Numbered from the stretch's first letter, positions 11,969 to 54,644 are shown. The stretch is DNA of 54,644 nt from Longimicrobiales bacterium (GCA_041690395.1 JAWLHJ010000002.1:721199-775842); one strand, 5' to 3'. Translations and numbers: made by a program. Notes: a model not told the origin generated them from the letters alone.

Positions 11969-12026
11969 GCGGGGACCACGGTATTGTGTGAGGACCCCAT
12001 CGACCCGCTTCAACACCCCGCGAGCC

Positions 12027-15981: not shown

Positions 15982-16012
15982 CGGAGCGGAGACACCACGC
16001 GGAGCGGCACGC

Positions 16013-16980: not shown

Positions 16981-16983
16981 GGG

Positions 16984-17193
16984 TCAGTCCTCGACGCGGT
17001 ACGCCGCGCAGAGCCGGTCCATGTCGACGTGCAGGTGCTTCAACACCGCCGGATCCTCACGGATGAAGTCCAGCAGCCGCTCGTAGTCGTCGATACCCCC
17101 GGCCGGCACCACCACGTTCTCGTCGTGATAGTCGCCGTCGTCCACGAACAGGAGACGAAGCTTCACGGACGCGGCCTTCGCCTTTCCGGCCAT
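16984..17193 (-). CDS. Small hypothetical protein (69 aa)
   Basis: MAGKAKAASVKLRLLF...; start overlaps the stop of the dsbA-like gene. Confidence 0.65.
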   Translation of the reverse strand: MAGKAKAASVKLRLLFVDDGDYHDENVVVPAGGIDDYERLLDFIREDPAVLKHLHVDMDRLCAAYRVED

Positions 17194-17942: not shown

Positions 17943-18073
17943 CCCCTGTTGCGGTCCGACCCGGAACCGAGCCGGTGAGCGACACGCCCGACGGACCGGG
18001 CGCCTCTGGATTCGATCGAGCCTGGAAGATGCCGCCCGTCGAGGCGCCGATCAAGCAACCCGCGCGGCGGCGA

Positions 18074-18766: not shown

Positions 18767-18788
18767 GGGCGTGCGGGCAGCGGCGAGC

Positions 18789-19766
18789 TCAGAACAGCTC
18801 GGACAGGAGGGACGGATCGAGGTTGCCCCCGCTGATCACCACGGCGACGGAGAGGCCTTCCGCGTCCACCTTCCCCGACAGGAGCGCCGCGGTCGTGGCC
18901 GCGCCGCTGTACTCCACGATCAGCTTCTGGCGGCCGACCAGCAGGCTCGTCGCCTCGCGGATCGCGTCGTCCGTGACGGTCACCACGTCGTCCATGAGGT
19001 CCCGGGCGTGCTCGAAGGTGAGCTGCCCGGCGATGACCGGCGCCAACCCGTCCGCGATCGTGTCGATCCGGTCGAGCTTCACCGGCCTGCCCGCGTCGAG
19101 CGCCGCCCGCATGGACGCCGCCCCCTCGGGCTCGACCCCGATCACGCGGGCTTTGGGGATCATGCGCTTCACCGACGCGGCCACCCCGCTCGCCAGGCCG
19201 CCACCGCCGATGGGCGCGAGCACCAGGTCGACGTCGGACCAAGCCCGTGCGATCTCGTACCCGACCGTTCCCTGGCCGGCGATGATGTGCCGGTGGTCGA
19301 ACGGCGGCACGATCACGAGTCCTTCCTCCGCCGCGATCTCTTCCGCGCGCGCCTTCCGCTCCACGGACGTGGTCCCCTCGAAGTGCACCTCGGCGCCGAG
19401 CGCTTCCGCACCCCGCACCTTCACCTTCGGCGCCGTGGTCGGCATGACCACGACCGCGCGCACGCCGCGCAGCTTGCCCGCCAACGCCACCGCCTGCGCG
19501 TGGTTACCGGACGAGTACGTGATGATGCCGCCACGCACCTGATCGTCCGAGAGCTGTGAGACGAAGTTGAACGCACCCCGCAGCTTGAACGACCCGGCGC
19601 GCTGCAGGCTCTCACACTTGAGCCGAACCGTGGCGCCCACCGCCTCGGAGACGGACTCCGACGGCAGCAGCGGGGTCGGCACGGCGACGCCCTGCAGCCT
19701 ACGCGCCGCCGCCTCGATCTCCGGGAGGCCGACCAGGCCCTCCCCCTGCACCACGTCGGGCGTCAC
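18789..19766 (-). CDS. Threonine/serine dehydratase (PLP-dependent, no ACT domain)
   Basis: KCESLQRAGSFKLRGA, SSGNHAQ, GGGGL, SGGN; GTG start inferred. Confidence 0.9.
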   Translation of the reverse strand: MTPDVVQGEGLVGLPEIEAAARRLQGVAVPTPLLPSESVSEAVGATVRLKCESLQRAGSFKLRGAFNFVSQLSDDQVRGGIITYSSGNHAQAVALAGKLRGVRAVVVMPTTAPKVKVRGAEALGAEVHFEGTTSVERKARAEEIAAEEGLVIVPPFDHRHIIAGQGTVGYEIARAWSDVDLVLAPIGGGGLASGVAASVKRMIPKARVIGVEPEGAASMRAALDAGRPVKLDRIDTIADGLAPVIAGQLTFEHARDLMDDVVTVTDDAIREATSLLVGRQKLIVEYSGAATTAALLSGKVDAEGLSVAVVISGGNLDPSLLSELF

Positions 19767-19776
19767 GTGCGGGCCC

Positions 19777-22464
<2,688 letters not shown>

Positions 22465-39633: not shown

Positions 39634-41547
39634 ATGCGCCCTCCAGCGGTTCGCATCCCGCCCTCGCCTCCGGAGCCGTCCCGCTTGACCCACTCCGAGC
39701 TCCTCATCGGCATCGCCGCCATCTTCGTCCTCGGCATCGGCGCGCAGTGGATCGCCGCCAAGCTCAACACTCCGTCCATCCTGCCGCTCCTGATCCTCGG
39801 CTTCATCGCCGGCCCCGTCACCGGGCTCGTGCGGCCGGACGAGATGTTCGGGGATCTCCTCTTCGTGATCGTGCCCCTGGCCGTCGGCGTCGTGCTCTTC
39901 GAGGGAGGCATGACGCTGTCCATCTCCGAGATCCGGAGCCATCACGGCGTCGTGCGCCGCCTCATCACCACCGGCATGCTCGTCACGTGGGGCATCGCCG
40001 CCGGCGCGGCCATCGTCATCCTGAACCTCTCTTCGGGGATCGCGGTCCTGTTCGGCGCCGTGATCGTCGTGTCCGGCCCCACGGTCGTCGGCCCGCTGCT
40101 CCGCTCCGTCCGCCCGCGCCCGCGCATGCGCACGATCCTGAACTGGGAGGGGATCCTCATCGATCCCATCGGCGCGACCCTCGCCGTGATCGTGTTCGGC
40201 ATCCTGATCGCCGGCGGCGGCTCGCTCACCGGCGGGCTCGGCGGCGTCCTTTCGACCCTGGCGGCGGGCGCGATCGTCGGCCTGATCGGGGCCGGCGCGA
40301 TGGTCCTGCTTCTCAAGGGATACCTGATCCCCGATCGCATGCAGGCTTCGGTCACGCTGGCGGCCATCGTGACCGCGTTCGTCGTCTCCGATCTCATACG
40401 GCCCGAATCCGGGCTGCTCGCCGTCACCCTCATGGGGATCGCCCTCGCGAACCAGCCCTTCGTGCCCGTCGGTCGTATCGTGGCCTTCAAGGAGACCCTC
40501 CGGGACCTCCTCATCGCCGCGCTCTTCATCGTGCTCGCCGCCCGGCTCGAGATGGAGGACGTGCTGTCCGTCGGCTTCGCAGAGGTTCTCTTCCTTTCGG
40601 TGATGGTGCTTCTGGCACGGCCGCTCACCGTGTTCATCTCCACCCTCGGCTCCGATCTCAGCCAGCGCGAGCGACTGTTCCTGGCATGGGTCGCCCCACG
40701 CGGCATCGTCGCCGCCGCCGTGGCCTCCGTCTTCGCGATCCCGCTGGAGGCGCAGGAGATCGTCGACGCCGACCGGCTCGTGCCGCTCACCTTCTTCGTC
40801 ATCGTCGGAACCGTCGCGCTCTACTCGCTGACCGCCAAGGTCGTGGGACGCCTGCTCGGCGTCGTCGACGAGCGCCCCGGCGGGCTCACCATCGTGGGCG
40901 CCAACCCCGTCGCGCGTGAGCTCGCCAAGTCCCTGGCCGATGCCGGGGTCGAAGTCCAGCTCATCGCCACGAACCATTCGGAGCTCACCAAGGCCCGGAT
41001 CGAAGGTCTAGACGCCGTGCGGGCCAGCGTGCTGGACCAGGTCTCCGAGGAGACCAGCGGCATCCTGCTGATCGCCACGCCCAACGACGAGTTCAACACC
41101 CTCGCCGCCATCCGCGCCGTCGAGTCGCGGGACCGGGCCCACGTCTATCAGCTCGCGCCGTCGGGCGGGAGCGACACCGCGGCCGCCCGGCCGCGCGCCC
41201 GCCTCTTCGTGTCCCCCGAGCTCACCTTCATCATGGCCTCGGAAGCGATGCTCGCGGGGGGCACCTTCCGCGGCACCGCGCTCACCGAGCAGTTCACCTT
41301 CCATGATTACCGGAAGCGCTATGGGGACCGGGCGATCCCCACCTTCCTCGTGGAGCGGAAGCGCCTCGTCGGGGTCTTCAGCGCGGACTCGTCGCTCACG
41401 CCCTCGCCCGGACAGATCGTCGTGTCCTTGATCACGCCCGAGGTCCCCGCGCCCGCGACGGTCGACGAGGAGGAGGTCATCGAGGCCATGGAGCGGAGCG
41501 GGCCCACGGGCCCGGAGGGGACGGGGCCGACCGGCTCGGGGACGTAG
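39634..41547 (+). CDS. CPA1 cation/H+ antiporter with C-terminal RCK-like domain
   Basis: LFEGG, SGPTVV.PLL, WEGILIDP.GA, APRGIVAA; start may be TTG at 39685. Confidence 0.88.
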   Translation: MRPPAVRIPPSPPEPSRLTHSELLIGIAAIFVLGIGAQWIAAKLNTPSILPLLILGFIAGPVTGLVRPDEMFGDLLFVIVPLAVGVVLFEGGMTLSISEIRSHHGVVRRLITTGMLVTWGIAAGAAIVILNLSSGIAVLFGAVIVVSGPTVVGPLLRSVRPRPRMRTILNWEGILIDPIGATLAVIVFGILIAGGGSLTGGLGGVLSTLAAGAIVGLIGAGAMVLLLKGYLIPDRMQASVTLAAIVTAFVVSDLIRPESGLLAVTLMGIALANQPFVPVGRIVAFKETLRDLLIAALFIVLAARLEMEDVLSVGFAEVLFLSVMVLLARPLTVFISTLGSDLSQRERLFLAWVAPRGIVAAAVASVFAIPLEAQEIVDADRLVPLTFFVIVGTVALYSLTAKVVGRLLGVVDERPGGLTIVGANPVARELAKSLADAGVEVQLIATNHSELTKARIEGLDAVRASVLDQVSEETSGILLIATPNDEFNTLAAIRAVESRDRAHVYQLAPSGGSDTAAARPRARLFVSPELTFIMASEAMLAGGTFRGTALTEQFTFHDYRKRYGDRAIPTFLVERKRLVGVFSADSSLTPSPGQIVVSLITPEVPAPATVDEEEVIEAMERSGPTGPEGTGPTGSGT

Positions 41548-41820
41548 GCTTCGCGCCGGAGGCCGCAGCGCCCCGCGTGTCCGTCCTTCCGGCCCAACAG
41601 GTCCGTGAGCCGCGGAGCCCCGGCGGAGCCCCGAACGCATCGTCTTCCCGCGCCGTGGGGTCCGTAGGCCCCAGCCCCCGAGGCATCCCCTTCCCACGCC
41701 GCGACGTCCGCAGACCCAGCCCCCGAGACATCGCCTTCCCCAGCCACGACCCACAACGAGGTGCCCACGGCCGTCCCGTTCCGGCATTCCCTCGCCCCGC
41801 GTCTCCGTGCTCCTTGCACC

Positions 41821-43101
41821 ATGCGCAGAGAGCCCGCCGTGACTGTTCGCGTCCACCCCCAGGAGGACCGCATCCTCATCCGATTCGGATGGCGTCGCTT
41901 CGCCGCCGTGCTCGACGCCGTGAAGGCACTCGCCGGGCGCCGCTACCTCCCGGAGCGGGCGCTCTGGAGCGCCCCCGCCCCCGATGCCGCCATCCGATCT
42001 CTCCAGCAGGCGTTGGGGAGGGATGAAGTGTGGATCATCGACGACCGTCCGTTGCTCGGGCCCGAGCTGCCGGCGGGGTGGACCAAGCCGGACGATCGGA
42101 ACCGGCCGGAGGGTCGACATCGGCGCACCACGGCGCAGGCGACCCGACCGGAACGCCCCACGGAAGCGCACCCGGCACGCCCCACCCGCGCCGATGCCCG
42201 AGACCCGGCGCGTCTCGAGCCATCCGACGCCCCAGCCCCCTCGCGGCTCGACCCGACGGGCGACGAGCTCCTGGCGCGCGTCCACGCTGCACTCGACCTC
42301 AGGGGATACAGTCCGCGCACGCGGAAGGTCTATCTAGGCCACCTCCGCCGATTCTTCGAGTGGTGCGGGGGCGGCACCCCGAAGCTGCCGGAAGATCCCG
42401 CGCGGAGTGCGCAAGCGTACCTCCTCGAGCTCGTACGTGGGCCCGGTATCTCGAAGAGCTACCATAACCAGATCGTGAGCGCCCTCCGGTTCCTGTGCGA
42501 GACCGTGCTCGGGCAGCCCCGGCTCGCGCTCCGGATCCCGAGGCCCCGGAAGGAGCGGAAGCTCCCCGCGGTGCTAAGCCCCGGCGAAGTCGCCCGCATA
42601 CTCGGCAAGACCCGGAACCTCAAGCACCGAGCGCTGCTCATGCTCCTCTACAGCGCCGGCCTCAGGGTGGGCGAGGTGGTCCGGCTCACACCCGCCGATC
42701 TCGACATGGATCGCGGGCTCGTGCGTGTGCGCGGCGGCAAAGGCGGAAAGGATCGGTACACATTGCTGGCCCAACGAGCCATCGAAGCCGTGCGTCTCTA
42801 CCGGGACGCCTATCCCGCACGCCCGTGGCTGTTTCCCGGTGGTATGAAGGAGACCCACCTGACGACGCGATCTGTCCAACGCATCGTCCAGGAAGCTGCC
42901 GAAGCCGCCGGCATCGAGAAGCACGTCACGGCCCACACCCTCCGTCACAGCTTCGCCACCCATCTCCTGGAGGGCGGCACGAACCTCCGCGTCATCCAGG
43001 AGCTCCTCGGCCACCAGAGCGCGAGGACGACCCAGGTGTACACCCACGTGGCCCGGTCCACCCTGGAAACCGTGAGGAGCCCGCTGGACAACCTGGAGTG
43101 A
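41821..43101 (+). CDS. Tyrosine recombinase of an integron-like element (SAM-like plus catalytic domains, extra N-terminal domain, no IntI-specific insertion)
   Basis: YSPRTRKVY, LPAVLS, YSAGLRVGE, GKGGKDR, HTLRHSFATHLLE, LGH, TQVY, terminal RSPLD; start uncertain (41761/41821/41839). Confidence 0.92.
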   Translation: MRREPAVTVRVHPQEDRILIRFGWRRFAAVLDAVKALAGRRYLPERALWSAPAPDAAIRSLQQALGRDEVWIIDDRPLLGPELPAGWTKPDDRNRPEGRHRRTTAQATRPERPTEAHPARPTRADARDPARLEPSDAPAPSRLDPTGDELLARVHAALDLRGYSPRTRKVYLGHLRRFFEWCGGGTPKLPEDPARSAQAYLLELVRGPGISKSYHNQIVSALRFLCETVLGQPRLALRIPRPRKERKLPAVLSPGEVARILGKTRNLKHRALLMLLYSAGLRVGEVVRLTPADLDMDRGLVRVRGGKGGKDRYTLLAQRAIEAVRLYRDAYPARPWLFPGGMKETHLTTRSVQRIVQEAAEAAGIEKHVTAHTLRHSFATHLLEGGTNLRVIQELLGHQSARTTQVYTHVARSTLETVRSPLDNLE

Positions 43102-43189
43102 AGCGGACCGGATCTTCGGGCCAGATCGGGTCGATGGGCGGTGGGCCACAGGCGGGGCGACCGGAGGCCGGGCCCCCGACGCGATTACC

Positions 43190-43218
43190 TTGCGCCTTAT
43201 CGACAGCCGGTGAACAAT
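43190..43218 (+). promoter_or_regulatory. Candidate cassette promoter (Pc-like)
   Basis: TTGCGC-17bp-AACAAT about 110 bp upstream of the putative attI, pointing into the array. Confidence 0.3.
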
Positions 43219-43318
43219 GCCAGGGTCGGAGCCAAGCCGTCAGGCGCCTCTAATATCGGGACTCTCGACGTCGGAAATCCCCCCGAGAAAGAGCGTAAAG
43301 CGACACTTTGCTTCGGCA

Positions 43319-43332
43319 ATAACCAGTTATGG
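43319..43332 (+). other. Putative attI-type primary recombination site (crossover near G43326/TT)
   Basis: ATAAC-CA-GTTAT palindrome; gttatggaacattggc pairs with gccaacgtcccataac before the first attC; downstream sequence matches the start of the last cassette (54569). Confidence 0.75.
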
Positions 43333-43740
43333 AACATTGGCCGAGCGGTTCGGTTTCTTGCGTCGGCTCCCTATGACGGAGGGCTTGCACGGTCGCGGCG
43401 CGGGGCTCCCCTCTGCCCCCTTTGGGGGCTCTGTAGTTTCCCGTCCGCGCCTGAGCTGGAGCCGACGCTAGACCCGCAGCTTCATCGTCATCTTCCTTGC
43501 TCAGAGGACCCGGCTACCCGATCGCCAGTGGCTCCCTGCGTCGGCGGGGCGAGTGCCTCGAAGGAGGCGCGGCTCCCTTCGTCGCGATCCCGAGAGACCA
43601 GCGCTGTAACTGAGCTCAGGTTCTTGAAGTGAAGTTCTCTCGGAGCCGCGCTTTCTCCGGGGGTAGGCCCGCCGACGCCAGGCGGAGTGCTTGGTCTCAT
43701 CGGGCGGGCTCACGTGGACATCGTGGAAGCCAACGTCCCA

Positions 43741-43891
43741 TAACAAGTATGTTTCTGGGTCCGCTCACTTCGTTCGCTCCCCCTACATGGCCTTACGATC
43801 GAACGTGGCCCGGGAGCGGATCGCAGTGTATTCTCCGGCAGGTAAGCGTGGGCCGGCTGATGGGGGCCACGTCAGAAACATCTGAACGTTA
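43741..43891 (+). repeat. attC-like site 1 (core type B)
   Basis: TAAC-aagt-ATGTTTCTG...ACATGGCC...GGCCACGT-CAGAAACAT-ctgaac-GTTA. Confidence 0.9.
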
Positions 43892-43948
43892 TCGGTCATT
43901 GCAGGCCGGGCATGAGGGCAGGCGGGTCGCGAACGGGCCTCCACTGGA

Positions 43949-44335
43949 GTGAGCGTGCATATTCCGGGACTTGAGATTAGGGAGCCACTGGAGCATCGCC
44001 CCATTCGTGGAACAATCCATGGTGGTTCCGTGGGGATCCTGTTCGGCGTTCTGGCTGTCGTCGGTGGAGCAGATGGTGGCACTCTGTTCGGCGGATACAC
44101 CGCCGGCTGCGCGGCGGCAGGTCTCGTTATTGGGTCTGCCCTGCCATTGTTCCGGTCGAGGGTGCTGGCTGGAGTAGTCGTGGCCGTTGCTTGGTCAGTC
44201 GGCCACGGGATTGCGACTCAACTCTGGGGCCAAGAGATGGGATTCCCGCTTGTGGCCTCGGTCGGGATGGCGATGGGATTCGCCTACGCCGTCTTGCTGT
44301 GGGACTACAAGTCAACAGGAGTAGCGCCGCATTAG
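43949..44335 (+). CDS. Cassette 1: hypothetical 4-TM membrane protein
   Basis: Single hydrophobic ORF inside the cassette; duplicated in cassette 2. Confidence 0.6.
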   Translation: MSVHIPGLEIREPLEHRPIRGTIHGGSVGILFGVLAVVGGADGGTLFGGYTAGCAAAGLVIGSALPLFRSRVLAGVVVAVAWSVGHGIATQLWGQEMGFPLVASVGMAMGFAYAVLLWDYKSTGVAPH

Positions 44336-44513
44336 TGGTGCGCTAAGGTTTCGACCTTAGGGGCACTGCCAGCGTGAGTCAGCCGACATGCCGTCTTGGT
44401 AGTGCCTCGTGGCCTGTGACTAGGCGACGCGTCCTTCAACTCTAGCTCGCGAGGGGACGAAGGTCGGTTTCACCGCCCGGACTGGTGTTGTCCGGCAAGC
44501 CTGCAACGACCGA

Positions 44514-44669
44514 TAACAAGAATGTTTCCGGCTCCGCTCACTGCGTTCGCTCCGACCTACATGGCCTCGAGCGTTTCAGGTCCGTAGACTGGGTGCAGTG
44601 ACGTAGGTTCCGCTTCTGTTCGCATGTAAGCAGTGCGGCGGTGGCCACGTCGGAAACATCTGAACGTTA
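44514..44669 (+). repeat. attC-like site 2 (type A)
   Basis: TAAC..ATGTTTCCG...CGGAAACATCTGAACGTTA. Confidence 0.9.
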
Positions 44670-44727
44670 TCGGTCATTGCAGGCCGGGCATGAGGGTCAG
44701 GCGGGTCGCGAACGGGCCTCCACTGGA

Positions 44728-45114
44728 GTGAGCGTGCATATTCCGGGACTTGAGATTAGGGAGCCACTGGAGCATCGCCCCATTCGTGGAACAATCCATG
44801 GTGGTTCCGTGGGGATCCTGTTCGGCGTTCTGGCTGTCGTCGGTGGAGCAGATGGTGGCACTCTGTTCGGCGGATACACCGCCGGCTGCGCGGCGGCAGG
44901 TCTCGTTATTGGGTCTGCCCTGCCATTGTTCCGGTCGAGGGTGCTGGCTGGAGTAGTCGTGGCCGTTGCTTGGTCAGTCGGCCACGGGATCGCGACTCAA
45001 CTCTGGGGCCAAGAGATGGGATTCCCGCTTGTGGCCTCGGTCGGGATGGCGATGGGATTCGCCTACGCTGTCTTGCTGTGGGACTACAAGTCAACAGGAG
45101 TAACGCCGCATTAG
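44728..45114 (+). CDS. Cassette 2: near-identical copy of the cassette 1 membrane protein
   Basis: Same protein except GVAPH versus GVTPH. Confidence 0.6.
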   Translation: MSVHIPGLEIREPLEHRPIRGTIHGGSVGILFGVLAVVGGADGGTLFGGYTAGCAAAGLVIGSALPLFRSRVLAGVVVAVAWSVGHGIATQLWGQEMGFPLVASVGMAMGFAYAVLLWDYKSTGVTPH

Positions 45115-45298
45115 TGGTGCGCTGAGGTTTCGAGCTTAGGGTCCGAAGAGCACTGCCAGCGTGAGTCAGCCGACATCCCGTCTTGGTAGTGCCTCGTGGT
45201 CTGACTAGGCGACGCGTCCTTCAACTCTAGCTCGCGAGGGGACGAAGGTCGGTTTCACCACCCGGACTGGTGTTGCCCGGCAAGCCTGCAACGACCGA

Positions 45299-45453
45299 TA
45301 ACAGGAATGTTTCCGGTTACGCGGGCTGCGCCCGCTCCACCTACATGGCCTCGAGCGCTTCGGGTCCGTATGCTGGGTGCAGTGACGTGGGTTCCGCTTC
45401 TGTTCGCATGTAAGCTGTGCGGCGGTGGCCACGTCGGAAACATCTGAACGTTA
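45299..45453 (+). repeat. attC-like site 3 (type A)
   Basis: Same consensus as the other repeats. Confidence 0.9.
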
Positions 45454-45598
45454 TATGACATCGCCTGAGGGGTTCTGAGGGGTCGAGGCGACCCTTTGAG
45501 GGGAGTTGAATAGGATTTAACGGAGCCCTTGCGTTAAAAATTTTGGCGCACGATTTTAATGTCCTCACGCCCCATTAAAGCCTCCTTCCCCCACTCGA

Positions 45599-46744
45599 AT
45601 GGACACTTCGGCTTTTGGCCCGAAGTCCCCTGGCAAGCTGGTTCCCGTATCGGGTGTTCGGGACGTTACGCACGCCTTTTGCCCGGAGCCTCTGCCTCCG
45701 AACTGGACGTTTCCGGCGGCCTTATGGCCGCTCCTCACGGACGCCCGAGTCGCTTTGGCGGACCTGAACGGGGTTGGTCGATATCTGCCTAATCCCGACC
45801 TGTTACTGCGCCCGCTCCAGAATCGAGAGGCACAAAAATCCTCGAGTCTTGAGGGGACGTACACGGAGCCCGAAGAGCAGATGCTGTTTGAGCTCGAGCC
45901 CGAGTTGCCCCGAGACGTGGCAGATCCCCGAAATGCTCGCAGGGAGGTCTCAAACTACGCTCGGGCTCTGCGGATCCGGCGCGAGAAGGATGAACTACCC
46001 CTCTCCTGGAGGCTGACCAAGACGCTTCACGAGGTCTTGATGGATGGGGTCCGTGGGTCGGATCGCGCCCCGGGGGAATTTCGGCGGCTCCAGAATCAAA
46101 TCGGTCGGCCGCCCAGATTTGTCCCCCCGCCAGCACATCTCGTCCCAGACCTACTCGACAACTTCGAGAAGTACTTGCATGCTGACGACGGGTTGGACCC
46201 TCTCGTACGTGCTTTTGTAGCGCACTATCAATTCGAAACCATCCATCCGTTCATGGACGGAAATGGCCGCGTCGGAAGACTGCTCCTCGCGATATCGATT
46301 GAGGAGTGGTGCGGACTATCGGCACCTTGGCTCTACATGAGCGACTTCTTCGATAGGAACAAAGACGACTACATCGACCTCATGTTTGCCGTGAGTTCCC
46401 GCGGAGACTGGGAGAGTTGGATCCGTTTCTGCCTCGAGGGAGTCGTGATTCAAGCCAAGGACACTGCCGCACGTTGCGGAGCACTGATTCAATTGAATAG
46501 GGACTTCCACGAGCGGGTCAACCAAATGGGTGCCAGCATCAGGCTCTCGGCTCTGGTCGACGACCTCTTCTTGAATCCCATGGTACGCGTGACGGACGCG
46601 CGAGATCGCCTCAGTGTAACCTACCCCACGGCCCGCAGTGATCTCCAAAAGCTTGAGCGAGCCGGAATCGTCCGGCTCCTGAAAGGAGCGCCACAGCTGA
46701 CTTACTTCTCCGGCCCGATCCTGAACACTATTTACGGCGATTGA
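45599..46744 (+). CDS. Cassette 3: Fic family protein with N-terminal domain and C-terminal wHTH
   Basis: HPFMDGNGRVGR Fic motif; EAQKSSSLEGT inhibitory-like motif; VTYPTARSDLQKL HTH. Confidence 0.92.
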   Translation: MDTSAFGPKSPGKLVPVSGVRDVTHAFCPEPLPPNWTFPAALWPLLTDARVALADLNGVGRYLPNPDLLLRPLQNREAQKSSSLEGTYTEPEEQMLFELEPELPRDVADPRNARREVSNYARALRIRREKDELPLSWRLTKTLHEVLMDGVRGSDRAPGEFRRLQNQIGRPPRFVPPPAHLVPDLLDNFEKYLHADDGLDPLVRAFVAHYQFETIHPFMDGNGRVGRLLLAISIEEWCGLSAPWLYMSDFFDRNKDDYIDLMFAVSSRGDWESWIRFCLEGVVIQAKDTAARCGALIQLNRDFHERVNQMGASIRLSALVDDLFLNPMVRVTDARDRLSVTYPTARSDLQKLERAGIVRLLKGAPQLTYFSGPILNTIYGD

Positions 46745-46781
46745 TGGGTTGCTCCAGACGGTTCGGTGGGGCGACGTCATA

Positions 46782-46930
46782 TAACAAGAATGTTTCCGGG
46801 TCCGCTCGCTGCGCTCGCTCCCCCTACATGGCCTTCAGGCTGTCGTGGCGCTGGAGCAGATCGCAGCGTATTCTCGGGCAGATGGTTCAGACGGTCCGGT
46901 GGTGGCCACGTCGGAAACATCTGAACGTTA
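46782..46930 (+). repeat. attC-like site 4 (type B)
   Basis: Same consensus as the other repeats. Confidence 0.9.
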
Positions 46931-46978
46931 TGTGAAACTGGCCTCGGATTGAGGCCGATCGTGTGGACCCTCCCGAGC

Positions 46979-47007
46979 TTGCTACTGTACCACGTTTGTG
47001 GTACTAT
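46979..47007 (+). promoter_or_regulatory. TA cassette promoter with overlapping palindromic operator
   Basis: TTGCTA-17bp-TACTAT; GTACCAC-gttt-GTGGTAC at 46987-47004. Confidence 0.75.
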
Positions 47008-47013
47008 GTGCCC

Positions 47014-47319
47014 ATGGGTTTCTCCTCCGCGAAGCGAGCGCTCCTGGCCGCCCTCGAGGTTGGCAACTTCCAGCACGAGGCCCGGGAGGTTCTCAGCGAG
47101 AAGAACCTGCTGGCCGTCGGGGACATCTCCGTGGACGAGGTCATCGGCATCGTGAAGCGGGCTCGCGGCCCGGACTATTCGGCGTCGCCTCATCACTGGG
47201 ATCCGGGCACCGAGGTACACGTGTTCCGGCCGACGGTCGAAGGGACCCGATGGTATGTGAAGGCCTACTTCCTTGAAGAACCCGAAGGAACTGCGGTCTT
47301 CATCAGCATTCACCGGTAG
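47014..47319 (+). CDS. Cassette 4: putative MqsR/RelE-superfamily toxin
   Basis: 101 aa, C-terminal WYVKAYF...VFISIH as in MqsR-like RNases; toxin-first gene order. Confidence 0.65.
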   Translation: MGFSSAKRALLAALEVGNFQHEAREVLSEKNLLAVGDISVDEVIGIVKRARGPDYSASPHHWDPGTEVHVFRPTVEGTRWYVKAYFLEEPEGTAVFISIHR

Positions 47320-47325
47320 GACGAC

Positions 47326-47916
47326 ATGAAGATCATCGAAGAAGGTACGAGGGGTGTTGCTCTAGCTCCGGAGCGCGGGAAGGTCCCCGTGGTATTCGAA
47401 TACCGTGACCTGACCCTGGACTCTGGAGTCGTGGTCAAGGACGTCCTCGTTGGGGTGGCTGAGGACACGGGAGAGGTCCTCACCGTTCCGGCCCAGTCCA
47501 CGCCTCGGATCAAGCTGGCCAGGCTGGCGGCGAAAGATGAGACGTTCTCGGTCCGCATCCCATTCGAGCTGAACGATATCCTGTGGGGTGTGTCTCACGA
47601 GCTCGGAGCGAATCCGACGAAGTTCAACTCTGCGTTGATCCGGTTTTATCTACATGAAGCGACCGACAGCCGGACCATGGCCCGGAGGTTGAAGAGGCTC
47701 TCGACTTCCGACCTAGCCGCGAAGTCCTCGAAGACCAAGCTCACCCTCCGGTCCGACTCGGATCTTCTTGAACGGGTCAAGCAGGTCGAAGAGAGAGAGG
47801 GGGTCTCTCGGAGTGAGCTGGTGAGAGGGGCCGTGATCGCAATGAAGGAAGATGTTTTCGACCGGCCGAGGAAGGGTCGCTTGGGTCAGCTAAGAGCCAT
47901 TGCTGAGGCGGTCTGA
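47326..47916 (+). CDS. Cassette 4: putative antitoxin (MqsA-like N-terminus, RHH-like C-terminus)
   Basis: V.DVLVGVAEDTGE resembles the MqsA C..CGE motif; two RHH-like segments. Confidence 0.6.
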   Translation: MKIIEEGTRGVALAPERGKVPVVFEYRDLTLDSGVVVKDVLVGVAEDTGEVLTVPAQSTPRIKLARLAAKDETFSVRIPFELNDILWGVSHELGANPTKFNSALIRFYLHEATDSRTMARRLKRLSTSDLAAKSSKTKLTLRSDSDLLERVKQVEEREGVSRSELVRGAVIAMKEDVFDRPRKGRLGQLRAIAEAV

Positions 47917-47941
47917 TTTGGCCGACCAGGCCAGCATCACA

Positions 47942-48092
47942 TAACAAGTATGTTTCCGGCTTCGCTCACTTCGTTCGCTCCGACCTACATGGCCTCGAGC
48001 GAATGTGGTCCGGGAACCAAGTGCAGCGTATTCTCGAAGTGAAGGTCCGACCACAGTTCGTGGTGGGCCACGTCGGAAACATCTGAACGTTA
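47942..48092 (+). repeat. attC-like site 5 (type B)
   Basis: Same consensus as the other repeats. Confidence 0.9.
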
Positions 48093-48341
48093 GCCGACAC
48101 CCTCAGACAGGTGCGGTAGGCGGGGTGGCCGCAACGAGCTTCTTGGGTTTCGGTCTCTTGGGCGGCTCCTGCGGGGTCGCCGGGTGGCTCAGCGAACCGT
48201 CTCTCTGAAATTCTCCCCTTCCCCGCCCAGGAGCTCAGGCCCCAGCAACCCACAACGCAACGCGACAAGCGCCAAGAGTTCAAAGTCTCGGGTCTAGGGT
48301 CGCGCGCTGAAACGTTCCTTGGTCTGAGGGCATCGGCTAAC
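48089..48341. other. Cassette 5: ORF-less cassette body (253 bp)
   Basis: Homologous to 51811-52065 and 52213-52466. Confidence 0.75.
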
Positions 48342-48493
48342 AAGAATGTTTCCGGCTCCGCGGGCTTCGCCCGCTCCGACCTACATGGCCTCGAGCGTCT
48401 CAGGTCCGTAGACTGGGTGCAGTGACGTGGGTTCCGCTTCTGTTCGTCTGTAAGCCGCGCGGCGGTGGCCACGTCGGAAACATCTGAACGTTA
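48338..48493 (+). repeat. attC-like site 6 (type A)
   Basis: Same consensus as the other repeats. Confidence 0.9.
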
Positions 48494-48581
48494 TGTGTAA
48501 TTGCCCTGGTGCCGGGGGATTGGGTTCAGATGGATGTCGCGAGGCTGATGCGTTCGCGTTGACCCAGGCGGTGATGAGCGA

Positions 48582-49784
48582 ATGAAGGGACTCGGAGTTC
48601 TTCTAATCCTGGGCATGTTCGCATGTGATCGTGCGGACCCACCTGAGGCCAGTGGGATTCCGACTACGACGTCGTCTCCACCGTACCCGGAGTGGTCACT
48701 GAGCTCCGAGCCTGACGTCCGCATCGGGGCGGTGGACGGGCCGCCGGAGTACCAGCTTACCCGCATCGGACTTGCCGGACGTCTAACCGACGGAAGGATC
48801 GTCGTGTTCGATAACGGCTCGTCTGAGCTGCGTTGGTTTGGTCCCGACGGAGGATTCCAGGCGCGAGCGGGAGGTCCCGGCGAGGGTCCAGGCGAGTTCC
48901 GGAGCGTGGTCAGCGCAGCCGTGACTCCACAGGACTCGGTCGTTCTGTATGACTTCAGGAATCAGCGGCTGACCTGGCACGGACCGGACGGAGTTCTCGG
49001 TCGCACCCTGCGGGCCGAGCTACATCCTTCCATGAGGCTCGTTTCCCGCCAAGACGAGCGCATCGTCATTGCGGAGGAACGGCCGGCGTTGAATCTAGGC
49101 GGTGCTGAGTACAACTACGCCCGGGACTCGGTCCTGATCATGTTAACCGGCAGCACGACACAGCCTCTCGACACCTTGGTGCACCGTGCCGGTCGAGAGG
49201 CGGCGACCTGGGTCGAGTACGCGGACGGAAGACCAATCGGCACTCGACAGCTCGGTCTGCCCTTCAGTCATCCGACACTCGTCGGAGCCGCAGCAGAAGG
49301 GATCGTGCTCCTGGAGAGCGGACGGTCTGAACTGGCTTTCCTGGATGATGAGGGCCAGGTGGTTCGGATGGCACACCGTACGGACGTGGATTCCCCTGCT
49401 CTTTCAGCTGTTCTGCGCCAAGAGTACGTGAGGAACGCCGTGCAGTCGGCGAGAGAGAGAGACGTTCCGGAACAGCCCGCTCGAGCTGCGGCCGAAGGTC
49501 TCCTCGCGGTGATCCCGGAAGGACATAGAGTGTCGCCCTTCGACCGCATGCTGACAGACCCTGTCTCGGGAAGGATCTGGGTCCGTGACTATCTGTTCGA
49601 TTGGAATGCCGGGGGAGCTCAGTATTGGACGGTGCATGATTCGCTCGGCCACGTCTTAGGGCGAGTCGCAACTCCGCCGGGACTTGAAGTCATGCAGGTG
49701 GGCTCCGATTTCGTGGTCGGAGTCGAGCGAGACCAGTTGGGGGTGGAGTATGTTGTCGCGTACTCGCTGGAGGGCTCCGACTAG
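48582..49784 (+). CDS. Cassette 6: lipoprotein, probable 6-bladed beta-propeller
   Basis: Lipobox MFAC; GGPGEGPGEF NHL-like motif; GRIWVRDY. Confidence 0.75.
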   Translation: MKGLGVLLILGMFACDRADPPEASGIPTTTSSPPYPEWSLSSEPDVRIGAVDGPPEYQLTRIGLAGRLTDGRIVVFDNGSSELRWFGPDGGFQARAGGPGEGPGEFRSVVSAAVTPQDSVVLYDFRNQRLTWHGPDGVLGRTLRAELHPSMRLVSRQDERIVIAEERPALNLGGAEYNYARDSVLIMLTGSTTQPLDTLVHRAGREAATWVEYADGRPIGTRQLGLPFSHPTLVGAAAEGIVLLESGRSELAFLDDEGQVVRMAHRTDVDSPALSAVLRQEYVRNAVQSARERDVPEQPARAAAEGLLAVIPEGHRVSPFDRMLTDPVSGRIWVRDYLFDWNAGGAQYWTVHDSLGHVLGRVATPPGLEVMQVGSDFVVGVERDQLGVEYVVAYSLEGSD

Positions 49785-49877
49785 ATGCGGATCGCGCGCG
49801 AAGAAGATCTTTGGGTTCTCCTCTCGGCGGCACCGCCGGTAACCGCATCGGTTTAGGTTGAGCCGGGCAACTACACA

Positions 49878-50027
49878 TAACAAGAATGTTTCCGGGTCCG
49901 CTCGCTGCGCTCGCTCCCCCTACATGGCCTCGAGCTGTCGGACATCGTAAGCTGTCAGTTGAACTCGGTGCGTTTCAGCAGAGAAAAGCGCATATGCTGG
50001 GGCCACGTCGGAAACATCTGAACGTTA
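49878..50027 (+). repeat. attC-like site 7 (type C)
   Basis: Same consensus as the other repeats. Confidence 0.9.
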
Positions 50028-50058
50028 TGTGAAACAGCTCCCCGCCTGAGGGAACGCG

Positions 50059-50628
50059 GTGGCATCGGAAGCAGGAGAATTGAACAGGGACACCCTGCCC
50101 GAGGTTATCGAGACGGAACGACTCGTCCTTCGACCGTTCCAACTCGGTGACGTGGAAGATGTCCTGGCCTATGCTCAGGATCCTGAATGGGCCCGCTTCT
50201 TGAGGGACCTCCCTCAGCCCTATGGACGGGCCGAGGCTGAGCAGGCTGTCGCCAAGCAGCTCCTGATGGACCGGGTTCGAGAGCCGAACTGGGCCTTGGT
50301 CTTTGAAGGCCAAGTCATCGGAGGCGTGATCCTATTGTTGGATTTCTCGAACAGGTCCGCCGAGGTCGGCTACTCCGTGGGCCGCAAGCAATGGAATAAG
50401 GGGTTGGCTACGGAAGCCGTCCGCGCCGTCATCGATGCGGCATTCTCCACACATGAAGATCTCAACCGGGTGTGGGCGAGGACGGATCCGGACAACGTGG
50501 CTTCCCAGCGGGTGCTCGAGAAGGTGGGAATGACGAAGGAAGGCGTTCTGCGTCTGAGTCGGGTGTACAACGGAGAGGCGTTCGACGAAGCGTACTTCTC
50601 TTTGCTTCGGACAGAACGGGGAGCGTGA
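50059..50628 (+). CDS. Cassette 7: RimJ/RimL-family GNAT acetyltransferase
   Basis: IETERLVLRPF, AEVGY, WNKGLATEA, NVASQRVLEKVGM..EG. Confidence 0.92.
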   Translation: MASEAGELNRDTLPEVIETERLVLRPFQLGDVEDVLAYAQDPEWARFLRDLPQPYGRAEAEQAVAKQLLMDRVREPNWALVFEGQVIGGVILLLDFSNRSAEVGYSVGRKQWNKGLATEAVRAVIDAAFSTHEDLNRVWARTDPDNVASQRVLEKVGMTKEGVLRLSRVYNGEAFDEAYFSLLRTERGA

Positions 50629-50659
50629 TCGACGGGGTACGGCGGGGAGCTGCATCACA

Positions 50660-50814
50660 TAACAAGAATGTTTCCGGTTACGCGGGCTGCGCCCGCTCCA
50701 CCTACATGGCCTCGAGCGCTTCGGGTCCGTATGCTGGGTGCAGTGACGTGGGTTCCGCTTCTGTTCGATTGTAAGCAGCGCGGTGGTGGCCACGTCGGAA
50801 ACATCTGAACGTTA
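50660..50814 (+). repeat. attC-like site 8 (type A)
   Basis: Same consensus as the other repeats. Confidence 0.9.
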
Positions 50815-50826
50815 TCGGTCATTGAA

Positions 50827-51060
50827 TCACGACCATGGTGCAGAGACTTCTCCGTCTAGCTCGTCGAGCTTCCGCTGCATGAAGGCTCGGGCATCTTGCA
50901 CTGCTTGGTTGTAAACGTGGGGCCCGACCTCATCGAGGCAGAAGTCAAGTAACTGGGACGCGCGGAACGAGCTCAAGGTCTCGTCGAACTCCTCCAGATA
51001 GAACCCCTGGATACGGAGAATCAGCTGCTCGCGTCGCTCGTCTGAGAGCCTCAGAGTCAT
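50827..51060 (-). CDS. Cassette 8: DUF2164 family protein
   Basis: IQGFY.EE...LLDF...EVGP.VYNQAVQDA. Confidence 0.8.
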   Translation of the reverse strand: MTLRLSDERREQLILRIQGFYLEEFDETLSSFRASQLLDFCLDEVGPHVYNQAVQDARAFMQRKLDELDGEVSAPWS

Positions 51061-51118
51061 CGGGTTTGTCCGTCCATTTCTTGCGTTAGAGAAAGAGTAC
51101 GATGGCCCACAGTGAAAG

Positions 51119-51625
51119 ATGAAGCTAACCGAGCCCAGGATCGAACGATCTCACCACATGAGGTTGGTTGGACTCAGTGCGCGGATGTCCTTTGGCGAGC
51201 CAGCCATGTCAGAGCTGTGGCGGACTTTTCGTCCGAGAGCCCGGCAGATCGGGAATCGGAGGAGCCAGGACTTCGTCTCCATGCGCGTGTTCGTTCCTCC
51301 GCTGAAGACCATGCCCCGGCTGGATTCCCCGTTCGTGCAGTGGGCGGCCGTTGAGGTCCACGACTTCGATCACGTTCCCGAAGGCCTCGACACGTGCGTG
51401 GTGCCGGAGGGTCTCTATGCAGTCTTTGTCCATCACGGTACAGCGGAGAGCTTCGGCCGAACGGCCCAGTTCATTTTTCGAGATTGGTTGCCGCAGTCTC
51501 CGTATCAGCTAGCACCCCGGGAGTTCTTCGAGATTCTTGGTCCAGACTATCGTCCGGACGATTCCGATGCATCCGAAGAGGTCTGGATACCTGTCGAACC
51601 TCGGCTACCAAGGCAGAGTGACTGA
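51119..51625 (+). CDS. Cassette 8: GyrI-like small-molecule binding protein
   Basis: LVGLS, LW..F, WAAVEV, VPEG, GLYAVFVH.G, IF.DWLPQS.Y, EEVWIPV. Confidence 0.88.
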   Translation: MKLTEPRIERSHHMRLVGLSARMSFGEPAMSELWRTFRPRARQIGNRRSQDFVSMRVFVPPLKTMPRLDSPFVQWAAVEVHDFDHVPEGLDTCVVPEGLYAVFVHHGTAESFGRTAQFIFRDWLPQSPYQLAPREFFEILGPDYRPDDSDASEEVWIPVEPRLPRQSD

Positions 51626-51664
51626 AGATGGGGCCGATCGTGTAGGTGATGATTCAACGACCGA

Positions 51665-51814
51665 TAACAAGAATGTTTCCGGCTCCGCTCACTTCGTTCG
51701 CTCCGACCTACATGGCCTCGAACGTGCAGGCATCGTATGCTGGCAGGTGAACTCGAAGGTTTCAGGTAAGATGAGCGCATATGCGGTGGCCACGTCGGAA
51801 ACATCTGAACGTTA
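51665..51814 (+). repeat. attC-like site 9 (type C)
   Basis: Same consensus as the other repeats. Confidence 0.9.
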
Positions 51815-52065
51815 GGCGACATCACTGAGCAGGTGCGGTAGGCGAGGTGCCCGCTATCAGCTTCTAAGGTTTCGGTATCTCGGGCGGCTCCTTCAGGGTA
51901 ACCGGCCGGCTCAGCGAGCGGGATCTCCACTGAGGTCCCCCTTCCCCGCCCGAGAACTGAGGTTCCATCGAACCTCGTCGCATCGCAACCAGCGCCAAGA
52001 GTTCGAAGTCTTGGGTCTAGCTTTCACCGGCTGGAACGTTCAATGGCTCAGTGACGCCGCCTAAC
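51811..52065. other. Cassette 9: ORF-less cassette body (255 bp)
   Basis: Homolog of cassette 5. Confidence 0.75.
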
Positions 52066-52216
52066 AAGAATGTTTCCGGTTGCGCGGGCTTCGCCCGCTC
52101 CACCTACATGGCCTCGAGCGCTTCGGGTCCGTAGACTGGGTGGAGTGACGTGGGTTCCGCTTCTGTTCGCATGTGAGCCGTGCGGCGGTGGCCACGTCGG
52201 AAACATCTGAACGTTA
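52062..52216 (+). repeat. attC-like site 10 (type A)
   Basis: Same consensus as the other repeats. Confidence 0.9.
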
Positions 52217-52466
52217 GCCGACATCGCGGAGCAGACGCGGGAAGCGGAGTGCCCGCGACGAACAACTGAGGTCGGTATTTCGGGCGGCTCCCTGCGGGGT
52301 CGCTGAGCGGCTCAGCGAACGGACTGAGATCAGGGGTCACCCCACTCCTCCACCCCGTTTCGGACCTGACATGGCCCACAGATCGCGGGGGAGCGCCAAG
52401 AGTTTGGAGGTCCAGGGTCTAGTTTCACCCCCAGCTACGTTCGTTGGCTCCGCGACGCCGGCTAAC
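52213..52466. other. Cassette 10: ORF-less cassette body (254 bp)
   Basis: More diverged homolog of cassettes 5 and 9. Confidence 0.7.
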
Positions 52467-52617
52467 AAGAATGTTTCCGGTTACGCGGGCTTCGCCCGCT
52501 CCACCTACATGGCCTCGAGCGCTTCGGGTCCGTATGCTGGGTGCAGTGACGTGGGTTCCGCTTCTGTTCGCATGTAAGCCACGCGGCGGTGGCCACGTCG
52601 GAAACATCTGAACGTTA
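52463..52617 (+). repeat. attC-like site 11 (type A)
   Basis: Same consensus as the other repeats. Confidence 0.9.
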
Positions 52618-52669
52618 TACGCCATTGGCCTAAGGGTTCGGTTTCACTTCCGGGTGGGGAGGCGAACAG

Positions 52670-53191
52670 ATGGGACGAACGGGAGCTTCCGCATCGCCTA
52701 CAGCTTCCCTATGCCTTTTCCTCATCGGACTCGCAGCCTGTGCCCCGGATGCTCAGCAGCACCTGGTAGAGCAGTTAGCTGAACCCGTCTCGGCCAACCC
52801 TGGATGTTACGAGGTATCTGGCACCACTGGCTTCCCCGAAGGAATTTTCGATCTGTATCTCCCCGAGGCCTTTCGGTTGCGGCCGCCCCGGCAGTCGGTC
52901 GCCGACGGGCACATCTTCAGTTATGCCGTCGAGTTCTTGAGCGTACCCGAGCGCTACCGCCCTTTCAATCGCATCGGAGAGGCGAGGAGCATACGCCCTG
53001 ACTCGCTGCTGGTCGTCTGGGACGGGGTAGTCCAGCGATTCCAGATCCGGCAAGATGGAGCGCTCACGGGGATCGTCACTCTCAGGAGACCGGAGATCGA
53101 GGTTCTCGGTGAGGTTGAGGCCCACCTGGTTGATTGTCCTACCGAGGAAGCTCCGACTGCCCCTCAAGTACCGTTCCCTGGAAGTGGCTGA
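52670..53191 (+). CDS. Cassette 11: hypothetical lipoprotein
   Basis: GGAGG RBS; lipobox LAAC. Confidence 0.6.
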   Translation: MGRTGASASPTASLCLFLIGLAACAPDAQQHLVEQLAEPVSANPGCYEVSGTTGFPEGIFDLYLPEAFRLRPPRQSVADGHIFSYAVEFLSVPERYRPFNRIGEARSIRPDSLLVVWDGVVQRFQIRQDGALTGIVTLRRPEIEVLGEVEAHLVDCPTEEAPTAPQVPFPGSG

Positions 53192-53296
53192 GGACGCAGC
53201 GAGCGACAAGTAGCTTTCTCGGGACTCGGAGGCTGAGAGCGCTTCGGCTCAAGGGTGAGGGCCAAGGACTGTAGGGAAGCGACGGCCAACGGCGTA

Positions 53297-53452
53297 TAAC
53301 AAGAATGTTTCCGGCTCCGCTCACTGCGTTCGCTCCGTCCTACATGGCCTCAAGCGTCTCAGGTCCGTATGCTGGGTGCAGTGACTTTGGCTTCGCTTCT
53401 GTTCGCATGTGAGCAGTTCGGCGGTGGCCACGTCGGAAACATCTGAACGTTA
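53297..53452 (+). repeat. attC-like site 12 (type A)
   Basis: Same consensus as the other repeats. Confidence 0.9.
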
Positions 53453-53585
53453 TACGACAAAGCGCAGGTTGTAGGGAGCAGGTCGGTAGGCCCGGACCAA
53501 GGACCTGGGTCGGTTCCGTCGGGCACGGACGTACAGATACGAGAGGCCGCCTGATCCGCTCGATCTCACGAATGGGAACCCCAGC

Positions 53586-54308
53586 TTGGAGAACGCTCAC
53601 GCCGGCCAGGTAGGAAGATCCGAGAGCGCCCGAGCCGGCGTGGCCGCCGCGGCCATCTTCCTGTTCGCAGTAGGGGCCTCCGCTGTGCTGACCTGGTCCA
53701 ACGGAAGCGTGTATAGCTTCCTATTCGGCGGGCTCAACCCCCTCCTGGTGACTGCAGCCGCCGCCCTTTTTGGAGTCGCTGCGCTTCAACGCCTTGCCCT
53801 TCTCGGGTGGTTCCAGGCTGGGGGCGCCAGTACTCGTAGCGTCGCGCTCGCCTCGGTGCTCGGTGCAGCCCTGACCGTTCCGGTCATCGTCATCGATCTC
53901 TTCGGTGGCTTTCCGGCCGAGCTGAATGTTCGGTTTCCGGAGTCCTTACTCTTCTATCCGTCCATCGCCGTGGTTGCGGAGTCGGCCTTTCATCTGGTGC
54001 CCCTGGCCCTGATGGCGATGGTGTGGAGGTGGACTTCCCTGGAGTTCTCGCGCGCTCGGCTCTTTGCGATCGGGATTGCTGCGGTAATCGAGCCGGTTCT
54101 CCAGGTGGCCTGGGGGAGTGAGATGTTACCGAGTTGGGCGAATGCCTACGTCGGCATCCATCTCTTGGTCTTCAATGTGGTCGCGCTCGAGATCTTCCGA
54201 CGCTCTGGGTTCGTTGCGCTCTATGGGTTCAGAGTCGGGTACTATCTCGTTTGGCACATCACCTGGGGCTACTTCCGACTTCCGCTGCTCTTCGAGAGCG
54301 GTACTTAG
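53586..54308 (+). CDS. Cassette 12: polytopic membrane protein, weakly CPBP/Abi-like
   Basis: About 7 TM segments; AESAFH and YYLVWH motifs; start uncertain. Confidence 0.65.
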   Translation: MENAHAGQVGRSESARAGVAAAAIFLFAVGASAVLTWSNGSVYSFLFGGLNPLLVTAAAALFGVAALQRLALLGWFQAGGASTRSVALASVLGAALTVPVIVIDLFGGFPAELNVRFPESLLFYPSIAVVAESAFHLVPLALMAMVWRWTSLEFSRARLFAIGIAAVIEPVLQVAWGSEMLPSWANAYVGIHLLVFNVVALEIFRRSGFVALYGFRVGYYLVWHITWGYFRLPLLFESGT

Positions 54309-54422
54309 GGAGGTGGCGGGCAGATTCCGGATGCGCGTGGATCTTGGACTGGAACCGGCTGGCACTTGTTTTGGGGTCAACCGCCGGTTGGGCCGGGCGT
54401 CGCGGGCCTGCGCTTCGTCGTA

Positions 54423-54572
54423 TAACAAGAATGTTTCCGGGTCCGCTCCCTGCGGTCGCTCCCCCTACATGGCCCGGAACGGGTGTGGCTCGAGAACGAA
54501 GTGCAGCGTATTCTCGATCAGGTCCGCGTGGACCGTCCGGTGGTGGGCCACGTCGGAAACATCTGAACGTTA
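54423..54572 (+). repeat. attC-like site 13 (type B)
   Basis: Same consensus; followed by a truncated cassette 13. Confidence 0.9.
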
Positions 54573-54644
54573 TAGGACATTGGCCCGAACGGTTCGGTTT
54601 GTTGCGTCGGCTCCCTCTTTCGGAGGACTTGCACGGTCGCGGCG

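Follow-up and report, generated by a model that had tools for sequence, protein, structure and literature searches.

Classical integrons combine a recombinase (IntI, profile TIGR02249; VchIntIA, PDB 2a3v), a simple attI-like site, and tandem cassettes lying between hairpin sites bounded by AAC and GTT. Their cassettes move as units, each comprising a gene and the site downstream of it, by exchange of one strand on the folded attC that replication then resolves. Strand choice in these systems depends on an extrahelical G (PMC2727003, PMC5027507), and in most classical cassettes the two ends pair with each other beyond their 7-nucleotide (nt) cores, over 9-11 nt (PMC2727003). IntegronFinder requires an IntI-specific profile (PMC9668308) and has recovered almost no integrons in Firmicutes (PMC4889954, PMC9024848). 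XerC and XerD are the other tyrosine recombinases reported to act on single-stranded substrates (PMC5027507), and in an "integron-like" subgroup of tyrosine recombinases the IntI insertion was not fully conserved and was called essential for integron function (PMC8138268); the passages there on insertion-less members mention neither cassette arrays nor sites nor an N-terminal domain. We describe here a cassette array in a Longimicrobiales bacterium (GCA_041690395.1), within a stretch of 54,644 nt (JAWLHJ010000002.1:721199-775842, hereafter the window), in which the ends of each cassette pair with one another around a fixed A/C mismatch.

The locus resembled classical integrons in having a recombinase, an attI-like simple site, and tandem cassettes between AAC...GTT hairpin sites, and its layout was that of sedentary chromosomal integrons whose integrase points the same way as the cassettes. 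As in classical integrons, cassette starts were complementary to their own ends, the bottom strand was predicted to fold better, and the cargo comprised toxin-antitoxin-like, GNAT, GyrI-like, and Fic genes together with cassettes lacking an open reading frame (ORF). In contrast, the recombinase lacked the IntI insertion (ca. 41 residues shorter) and carried a HARP-like N-terminal domain; the cassette ends (arms) paired over ca. 17 nt rather than 9-12 nt, with a fixed A/C at position 11 where classical cassettes mostly have A:T; the inner stem had no extrahelical base, whereas classical sites have a G in L'' and more on the R''-L'' arm; the spacers were 4 and 6 nt, longer on the GTT side, rather than 5-6 nt on each arm; and the sites measured 149-156 nt, compared with 57-141 nt. 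The present system also extends to Bacillota, a phylum in which IntegronFinder recovered hardly any integrons (PMC9024848). As three defining features that were tested (IntI insertion, extrahelical bases, and spacer and site size) did not take their classical form, the system was not filed as a classical integron; it would appear to work like one while falling outside IntI.

Xer/dif systems (XerC, XerD, and archaeal XerA) were alike in their simple two-domain catalytic core without the insertion and in dif-like arm sequences. However, their two 11-bp arms surround a 6-bp centre, whereas the arms here were split over a cassette array; the candidate attI alone can be read as 11-bp arms with a 6-bp centre, in an ambiguous register, and another pair of tyrosine recombinases, with strong support, is encoded separately in the genome. 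A literature search, with subscription papers mostly outside its scope, found no description of these arrays, of the mismatch at position 11, or of the domain fusion.

Results and Discussion

Site calling relied solely on the conserved interior, and cassette arms were compared afterwards. With cassettes delimited by a GTTA and the TAAC that follows it, starting from the GTTA at 43326, 13 complete cassettes were obtained between 43326 and 54426 (c0 to c12, Table 1). The start of each cassette was complementary to its own end over the lengths given in Table 1, and at position +11 an A faced a C in 13/13. Contig C1 of this genome carried another piece of array, with A/C at +11 in 30/30 intervals, so that both pieces together gave 43/43, with pairing of 15-23 nt in 42 intervals and 4 nt in one; a genome of the same genus had A/C in 10/10. 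The C1 piece likely continues the array of the window's contig, C2; the contig ends do not overlap. The claim of the first-pass annotation that every cassette has its own inverted repeat of 16-23 nt with A/C at +11 was therefore borne out, in the window and genome-wide. The mismatch was fixed as claimed, but it was not the sole one, as six of the 13 cassettes had a second mismatch at position 8, 9, or 10 (A/A in c4 and c7, A/C-type in the other four).

The pairing extended well into sequence that was private to each cassette. Among 12 distinct cassettes (the c1/c2 duplicate counted once), arm positions 5-7 were paired in 36/36 cells and positions 12-20 in 93/108, against a permutation mean of 44.1 (standard deviation 6.6) and with 0/20,000 permutations as high. 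Positions 21-30 paired at chance (27 versus 22.1 expected; 2763/20,000 permutations as high). At integrated junctions, where the end of one cassette meets the start of the next, pairing ended after 4-10 nt, except at the junction of the c1/c2 duplicates. The array (43326-54644) had a GC content of 60.6%, compared with 70.7% for positions 1-41700.

On the plus strand, each of the 13 attC-like sites had a conserved TAAC at its start and a conserved GTTA at its end, and the AAC/GTT bounds and an inner inverted repeat were present in 13/13. The inner arms were nearly identical between sites, and in 53 sites of this genus that were called by consensus the inner stem comprised nine contiguous pairs and no extrahelical base; because family-wide calling demanded an uninterrupted inner stem, the family sites cannot test for such bases. 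The loop between arms and inner stem had two more unpaired nt on the GTT side, and most sites of the wider family had 2-3 extra nt there. Every site interior also held a small side hairpin on the TAAC arm, for which a few alternative sequences occurred (e.g., 44530-44555), and a further conserved helix whose mismatch was again of the A/C type. An Rfam scan of 41000-54644 gave a single chance-level match, and a promoter scan of 41500-44000 gave no sigma-70-like site.

A candidate attI ending in GTT was located, by sequence, 70-310 nt behind the recombinase in 57/83 loci. Its left arm matched the right inner attC arm of its own locus at a mean of 6.9/10 positions, compared with 5.1 for other groups, and this match was shifted by 3 nt in 21/25 loci. 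Crossover may fall at or within the GTTA of the candidate attI, and the inner stem may act as the second half-site, its right arm resembling the attI left arm. The left arm as a copy of the cassette-end (R) arm was rejected, with negative scores against R-arm profiles in all 12 registers. The base at the equivalent of position 11 varied among attI left arms (G20, T16, A14, C5 of 55), and C at position 11 is therefore not a general arm-recognition base.

The recombinase lay directly upstream of the array, matched PF13495 and PF00589, and had all catalytic residues (R282, K307, H372, R375, H398, and Y407). It scored 213 bits in two stretches against the IntI profile (cut-off 265), and it missed the XerC and XerD cut-offs (186 versus 335 and 184 versus 330 bits) while scoring equally well against Xer and IntI structures. 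Residues 176-199 aligned to VchIntIA 172-237, placing the missing residues in the catalytic domain; between motifs it had 59 residues, compared with 58-62 in insertion-less proteins and 99-101 in IntI. Its genome (98% complete) yielded no IntI scoring over the cut-off, and its nearest named relatives were from Gemmatimonadota. In a tree of 50 recombinases, IntI formed one clade (100/99) and the insertion-less proteins were unresolved around it; ancestry to IntI is therefore not claimed. One genome held a related recombinase of 297 residues in seven near-identical copies, one of them beside a partial IntI-scoring frame; this resembled a mobile unit and not an array head.

The 78 N-terminal residues had a confident predicted fold (mean predicted local distance difference test, pLDDT, 87.7). 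The best fold matches were the N-termini of XPB and UvsW, with middling Z scores of 5.3-5.6 (root-mean-square deviation 2.3-2.5, 58-62 residues aligned); a HARP structure was matched at E 0.45 only, Foldseek returned nothing at E 0.001 or better, and matches in a protein atlas were all under 0.9, with no family. Pfam HARP (PF07443) gave weak matches in 8/10 relatives, one over the cut-off, and none in this copy. Unlike the HARP domain of SMARCAL1 and the similar folds at the N-termini of T4 UvsW and XPB, the domain is fused here to a recombinase rather than a helicase. The folds of HARP, UvsW, XPB, and MutS have reportedly been linked. A profile built for the domain found it at 63/80 related loci (58 fused, 5 in a separate frame) and did not detect it at 17/80. 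The same recombinase with the HARP-like domain was seen in an archaeal metagenome-assembled genome (Nanohalarchaeota by title), on a contig that ends right after the gene.

The homologous arrays came from 80 related loci, many with repeats downstream. Sites called by the inner stem alone in 32 of these loci, three relatives, and the two pieces from this genome gave 226 sites and 166 intervals, of which 153 were distinct; intervals spanning missed sites were kept, diluting the signal, and kin were counted and are not independent. Aligning cassette ends across the full array and these homologues, as the first-pass annotation had proposed, upheld the mismatch beyond this genome: +11 was A/C in 143/153 intervals (this genome's distinct intervals 36/36, other Gemmatimonadota 31/34, Paenibacillaceae 51/53, clostridia-like 7/7, Ignavibacteria 13/16, Bacteroidota 3/5, Spirochaetota 2/2). 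Family arms had a median length of 17 nt, with at least 15 nt in 111/153, and +8 was G/C in 139/153. Positions 1-4, 8, and 11 were near-invariant and therefore meet in any neighbour order, while 5-7 and 12-17 were private to each cassette. A 17-letter left-end pattern occurred in 66/101 genomes from the family of a Paenibacillus isolate, against 2 matches in all for its reversed control. A Bacteroidales locus (11382-20801) had an array with much longer repeats (ca. 350 nt) and similar cores, which the site caller missed.

A canonical control was assembled from IntI loci (59 intervals, 44 distinct). It consisted mostly of class 1 and environmental IntI loci, because 20 same-phylum stretches beside IntI genes yielded no attC array by the site caller used and 20 Nitrospirota stretches yielded only 8 sites and 2 intervals; IntI was over the cut-off in 124/301 Gemmatimonadota genomes, from which those same-phylum stretches came. 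Canonical cassettes paired over a median of 9.5 nt, typically to ca. 12 and at most 13; 21/44 reached 11 nt, and 0/44 reached 15. Position +11 was A/T in 24/44 and A/C in 3/44, with A in 70% of starts. This control agrees with PMC2727003, so arm extension as such was already known; the first-pass annotation had held that its reading would fall if equally long complementarity with a fixed mismatch were common in canonical cassettes, and pairing past 7 nt was found there, but pairing over at least 15 nt and a fixed A/C were not. What sets the present arrays apart from this control is the length of the arms and the fixed mismatch. The feature is real and family-wide and exceeds that of canonical cassettes, and the best interpretation is that it marks an integron variant lacking the insertion.

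Proposed mechanism and its weighing

Folding of the attC-like sites was predicted for the excised circle and for the integrated array. Bottom-strand folds of the 13 circle sites were more stable than those of the integrated sites by a mean of -12.8 kcal/mol (range 0 to -21.4), because the private pairs are lost after integration. The bottom strand folded better than the top in 13/13 circle sites, and the T:G at +11 was paired with a probability of 0.85-0.98. Arm duplexes were steadier on the bottom strand in 132/153 family intervals, compared with 20/44 canonical ones, and other family arm mismatches leaned toward bottom-strand wobbles (68 versus 31). Cognate arm duplexes were strong (mean -21.5 kcal/mol) and exceeded non-cognate ones by 9.4 kcal/mol, compared with 4.1 in the canonical control. 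The longer circle stem that the first-pass annotation had postulated was thus supported by folding, except for the c1/c2 duplicates, where pairing at the integrated junction was as good as in the circle. The accompanying suggestion of a second recombinase-binding hairpin was not supported, as the arms run on unbroken from the TAAC/GTTA core and form the R stem of a single site.

On balance, it is fairly probable that the arms are the outer R-stem halves of one attC-like hairpin, formed on the bottom strand of the circle, that the insertion-less recombinase joins this hairpin to the candidate attI, and that the fixed mismatch is the strand selector. In the cassette circle, the arms would zip into the outer stem, and the adjacent recombinase would join the folded site to the candidate attI. 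The cut strand would have T at position 11 both in duplex attI (T:A) and in the folded bottom strand (a T:G wobble clamped within the duplex by pairs 12-17), whereas a folded top strand would put C on the cut strand, in an unpaired C/A. The folded site may in this way imitate attI, with three extra bases looped out on the cut strand relative to the attI spacer, and T:G at 11 and the asymmetric loop may stand in for the extrahelical bases and the IntI insertion. One possible role of the HARP-like domain is binding to fork-like hairpin junctions, and the presence of the mismatch does not depend on it; as an obligate reader of the mismatch, the domain was weakened as a candidate by the intervals from loci in which it was not detected. 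In this model, the longer circle stem could impart directionality, with integration likely favoured and excision damped by the better folding of the circle.

Several observations weigh against this mechanism. The bottom strand was favoured in only 8/13 integrated sites, and the strand difference derived from the arms was small (family mean 1.4 kcal/mol, 2.0 in the window; model energies). A bottom-strand wobble bias was present in canonical arms as well (55 versus 38) and is known for canonical sites (PMC5027507), and deamination of cytosine on one strand could be the source of the same bias. Since cognate arms outperform non-cognate ones in canonical cassettes as well, the advantage of the circle here is only a matter of degree. 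Position 10 was often mismatched too (A/A in 40/153), and A/C at +11 was nearly as frequent in intervals without a detected HARP-like domain (18/21) as with it (125/132). The canonical control was small and held no Vibrio-type superintegron. Linkage of cassettes to their downstream site was mixed (13/23 pairs), although the closest copies do share it. Among the sequencing runs listed, none of RNA contained this sequence, and assembly of four runs (best DNA share 0.22) gave contigs of relatives with joints within repeats and no clean circle junction.

The ORF-less cassettes provided a view of how arms change. Ten of 253-257 bp (48089-48341, 51811-52065, 52213-52466, and seven on C1) formed one family, often alternating with gene cassettes, and the longest ATG frame was 11-39 codons in the three tested; they are possibly promoter or RNA cassettes. 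These paralogues had three arm types, with several positions changed in mirror on both sides, and three single-mismatch intermediates. The mirrored changes may reflect selection for pairing or copying between arms; copying is disfavoured because it would not keep the mismatch. Copies of one cassette also occurred between different neighbours (e.g., c4 and a 92% copy on C1).

The explanation that competes best with the proposed hairpin mechanism accepts an integron-like hairpin system and regards pairing past ca. 12 nt as a by-product of copying or correction of one arm from the other, during cassette formation or in the folded circle, with positions 1-12 alone mattering and A and C at 11 as independent preferences. 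The mirrored indel-like and multi-base changes in cassettes 80-90% identical, which are fast for stepwise compensation, are consistent with it, as are the reuse of the same arm sequence by unrelated cassettes (one hexamer in 5/41 families) and the frequency of A at +11 in canonical starts. Nevertheless, copying or repair should erase the mismatch, which was kept in 143/153, single-mismatch intermediates exist, and the stem ends at a similar length (ca. 17) in distant phyla. We therefore regard this explanation as unlikely.

It is less likely still that the arms act within the array, with a start pairing with its own end in single-stranded DNA, the gene looped out, and neighbouring inner arms cross-paired, so that perfect sites drive excision; this comes near to the second hairpin of the first-pass annotation. 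The near-identical inner arms make such cross-pairing possible, and the strong cognate duplexes and many short cassettes would favour it. However, loops of 0.25-1.5 kb must beat a local 150-nt fold, and canonical integrons excise from imperfect R boxes (PMC5371416).

A third explanation, that these are Xer-type 11-bp duplex arms for the host XerC/D or for the recombinase acting on duplex or cruciform DNA, with pairing unnecessary, is very improbable. Cassette starts do resemble the XerD side of dif, 43327-43337 being identical to one in Table 1 of PMC2731167, and the recombinase scores equally against Xer and IntI structures, but duplex arms would leave the cassette-private covariation at 5-7 and 12-17 unexplained, the arms lie 143-150 nt apart and not 6, and the arrays have a conserved, dedicated recombinase and attI next to them. 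Terminal inverted repeats of small transposons or miniature inverted-repeat transposable elements, of which 16-23 nt is a typical length, were effectively refuted and are extremely improbable, as the arms differ per unit, the units are flanked by constant halves of sites and not by target duplications, no transposase match was found among 12 proteins scanned, and the units stand in tandem behind a tyrosine recombinase.

Cassette contents and surroundings

The features of the locus are collected in Table 1. By their layout and the weak antitoxin match, the two ORFs of c4 (46963-47916) were toxin-antitoxin-like. Cassette c0 held a hairpin with a T-tail at 43415-43429 and belonged to a family of ca. 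420 bp with no clear ORF, with three copies in this genome (43326-43744, 54569-54644, and C1) and one in the same-genus genome. Small, degraded clusters of these sites, their arms eroded, were found away from the recombinase, at C5:381269-386851 (plus strand) and on C6 (minus strand, ca. 340971-342462 of the reverse complement). The plus strand of C2 was C-rich throughout (skew about -0.02, a weak signal in a fragmented genome), which would place the folding bottom strand on the lagging-strand template; this is unusual for large classical arrays (PMC5371416).

Table 1. Coordinates of the recombinase, candidate attI, cassettes, and attC-like sites in the window
Feature	Position	Strand	Details
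Tyrosine recombinase	41761..43101	+	ORF from GTG 41761; database protein from ATG 41821, 426 amino acids (aa); on cassette strand
HARP-like N-terminal domain	41821..42054	+	78 residues; no Pfam match in this copy, relatives match
Candidate attI	43310..43337	+	left arm 43310-43320, then a spacer of 5 nt; GTT from 43326; right arm provided by the start of the first cassette
Cassette c0	43326..43744	+	arms 16 nt (A 43336 / C 43734); extra A/C at +8; no clear ORF
Cassette c1	43888..44517	+	arms 19 nt; membrane-type ORF 43949-44335, 128 aa
Cassette c2	44666..45302	+	arms 19 nt; 97% copy of c1
Cassette c3	45450..46785	+	arms 16 nt; Fic protein 45599-46744, matches PADLOC SoFic model
Cassette c4	46927..47945	+	arms 18 nt, A/A at +10; ORFs of 118 and 196 aa, second with weak CopG-type antitoxin match
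Cassette c5	48089..48341	+	253 bp, ORF-less; arms 20 nt
Cassette c6	48490..49881	+	arms 17 nt; ORF 48582-49784, 400 aa, weak beta-propeller match
Cassette c7	50024..50663	+	arms 23 nt, A/A at +10; GNAT acetyltransferase 50059-50628
Cassette c8	50811..51668	+	arms 19 nt; DUF2164 (minus strand) and GyrI-like/Cass2 ORF 51119-51625
Cassette c9	51811..52065	+	255 bp, ORF-less; arms 20 nt, extra A/C at +9
Cassette c10	52213..52466	+	254 bp, ORF-less; arms 20 nt, extra A/C at +9
Cassette c11	52614..53300	+	arms 17 nt; ORF 52670-53191, 173 aa
Cassette c12	53449..54426	+	arms 20 nt; membrane-type ORF 53586-54308, 240 aa
First attC-like site	43741..43891	-	TAAC to GTTA; bottom strand is the predicted folded strand
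Other 12 attC-like sites	starts 44514, 45299, 46782, 47942, 48338, 49878, 50660, 51665, 52062, 52463, 53297, 54423
14th cassette, start only	54569..54644	+	c0 family; cut by contig end; A at +11

Implications

Integrons are defined and sought by the IntI insertion and extrahelical bases, both of which are held necessary for strand-specific recombination, whereas the large shuffled arrays described here have neither feature and carry a different fixed asymmetry. We put at even chances the wider proposal that these arrays represent a second widespread integron class, common in Gram-positive Paenibacillaceae and present in many other phyla but invisible to IntI-based tools, in which the strand would be picked by the clamped T:G wobble in the R arm and the asymmetric loop rather than by flipped-out bases, a HARP-like junction-binding domain would replace the IntI insertion, and a state ancestral to classical integrons may be preserved. 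The A/C rule at +11 provides a simple signature for locating such cassettes and their cargo. If functional, the system would be a second solution to single-strand recombination, would allow a direct test of the origin of integrons from Xer-like enzymes, and would answer the apparent lack of integrons in Firmicutes.

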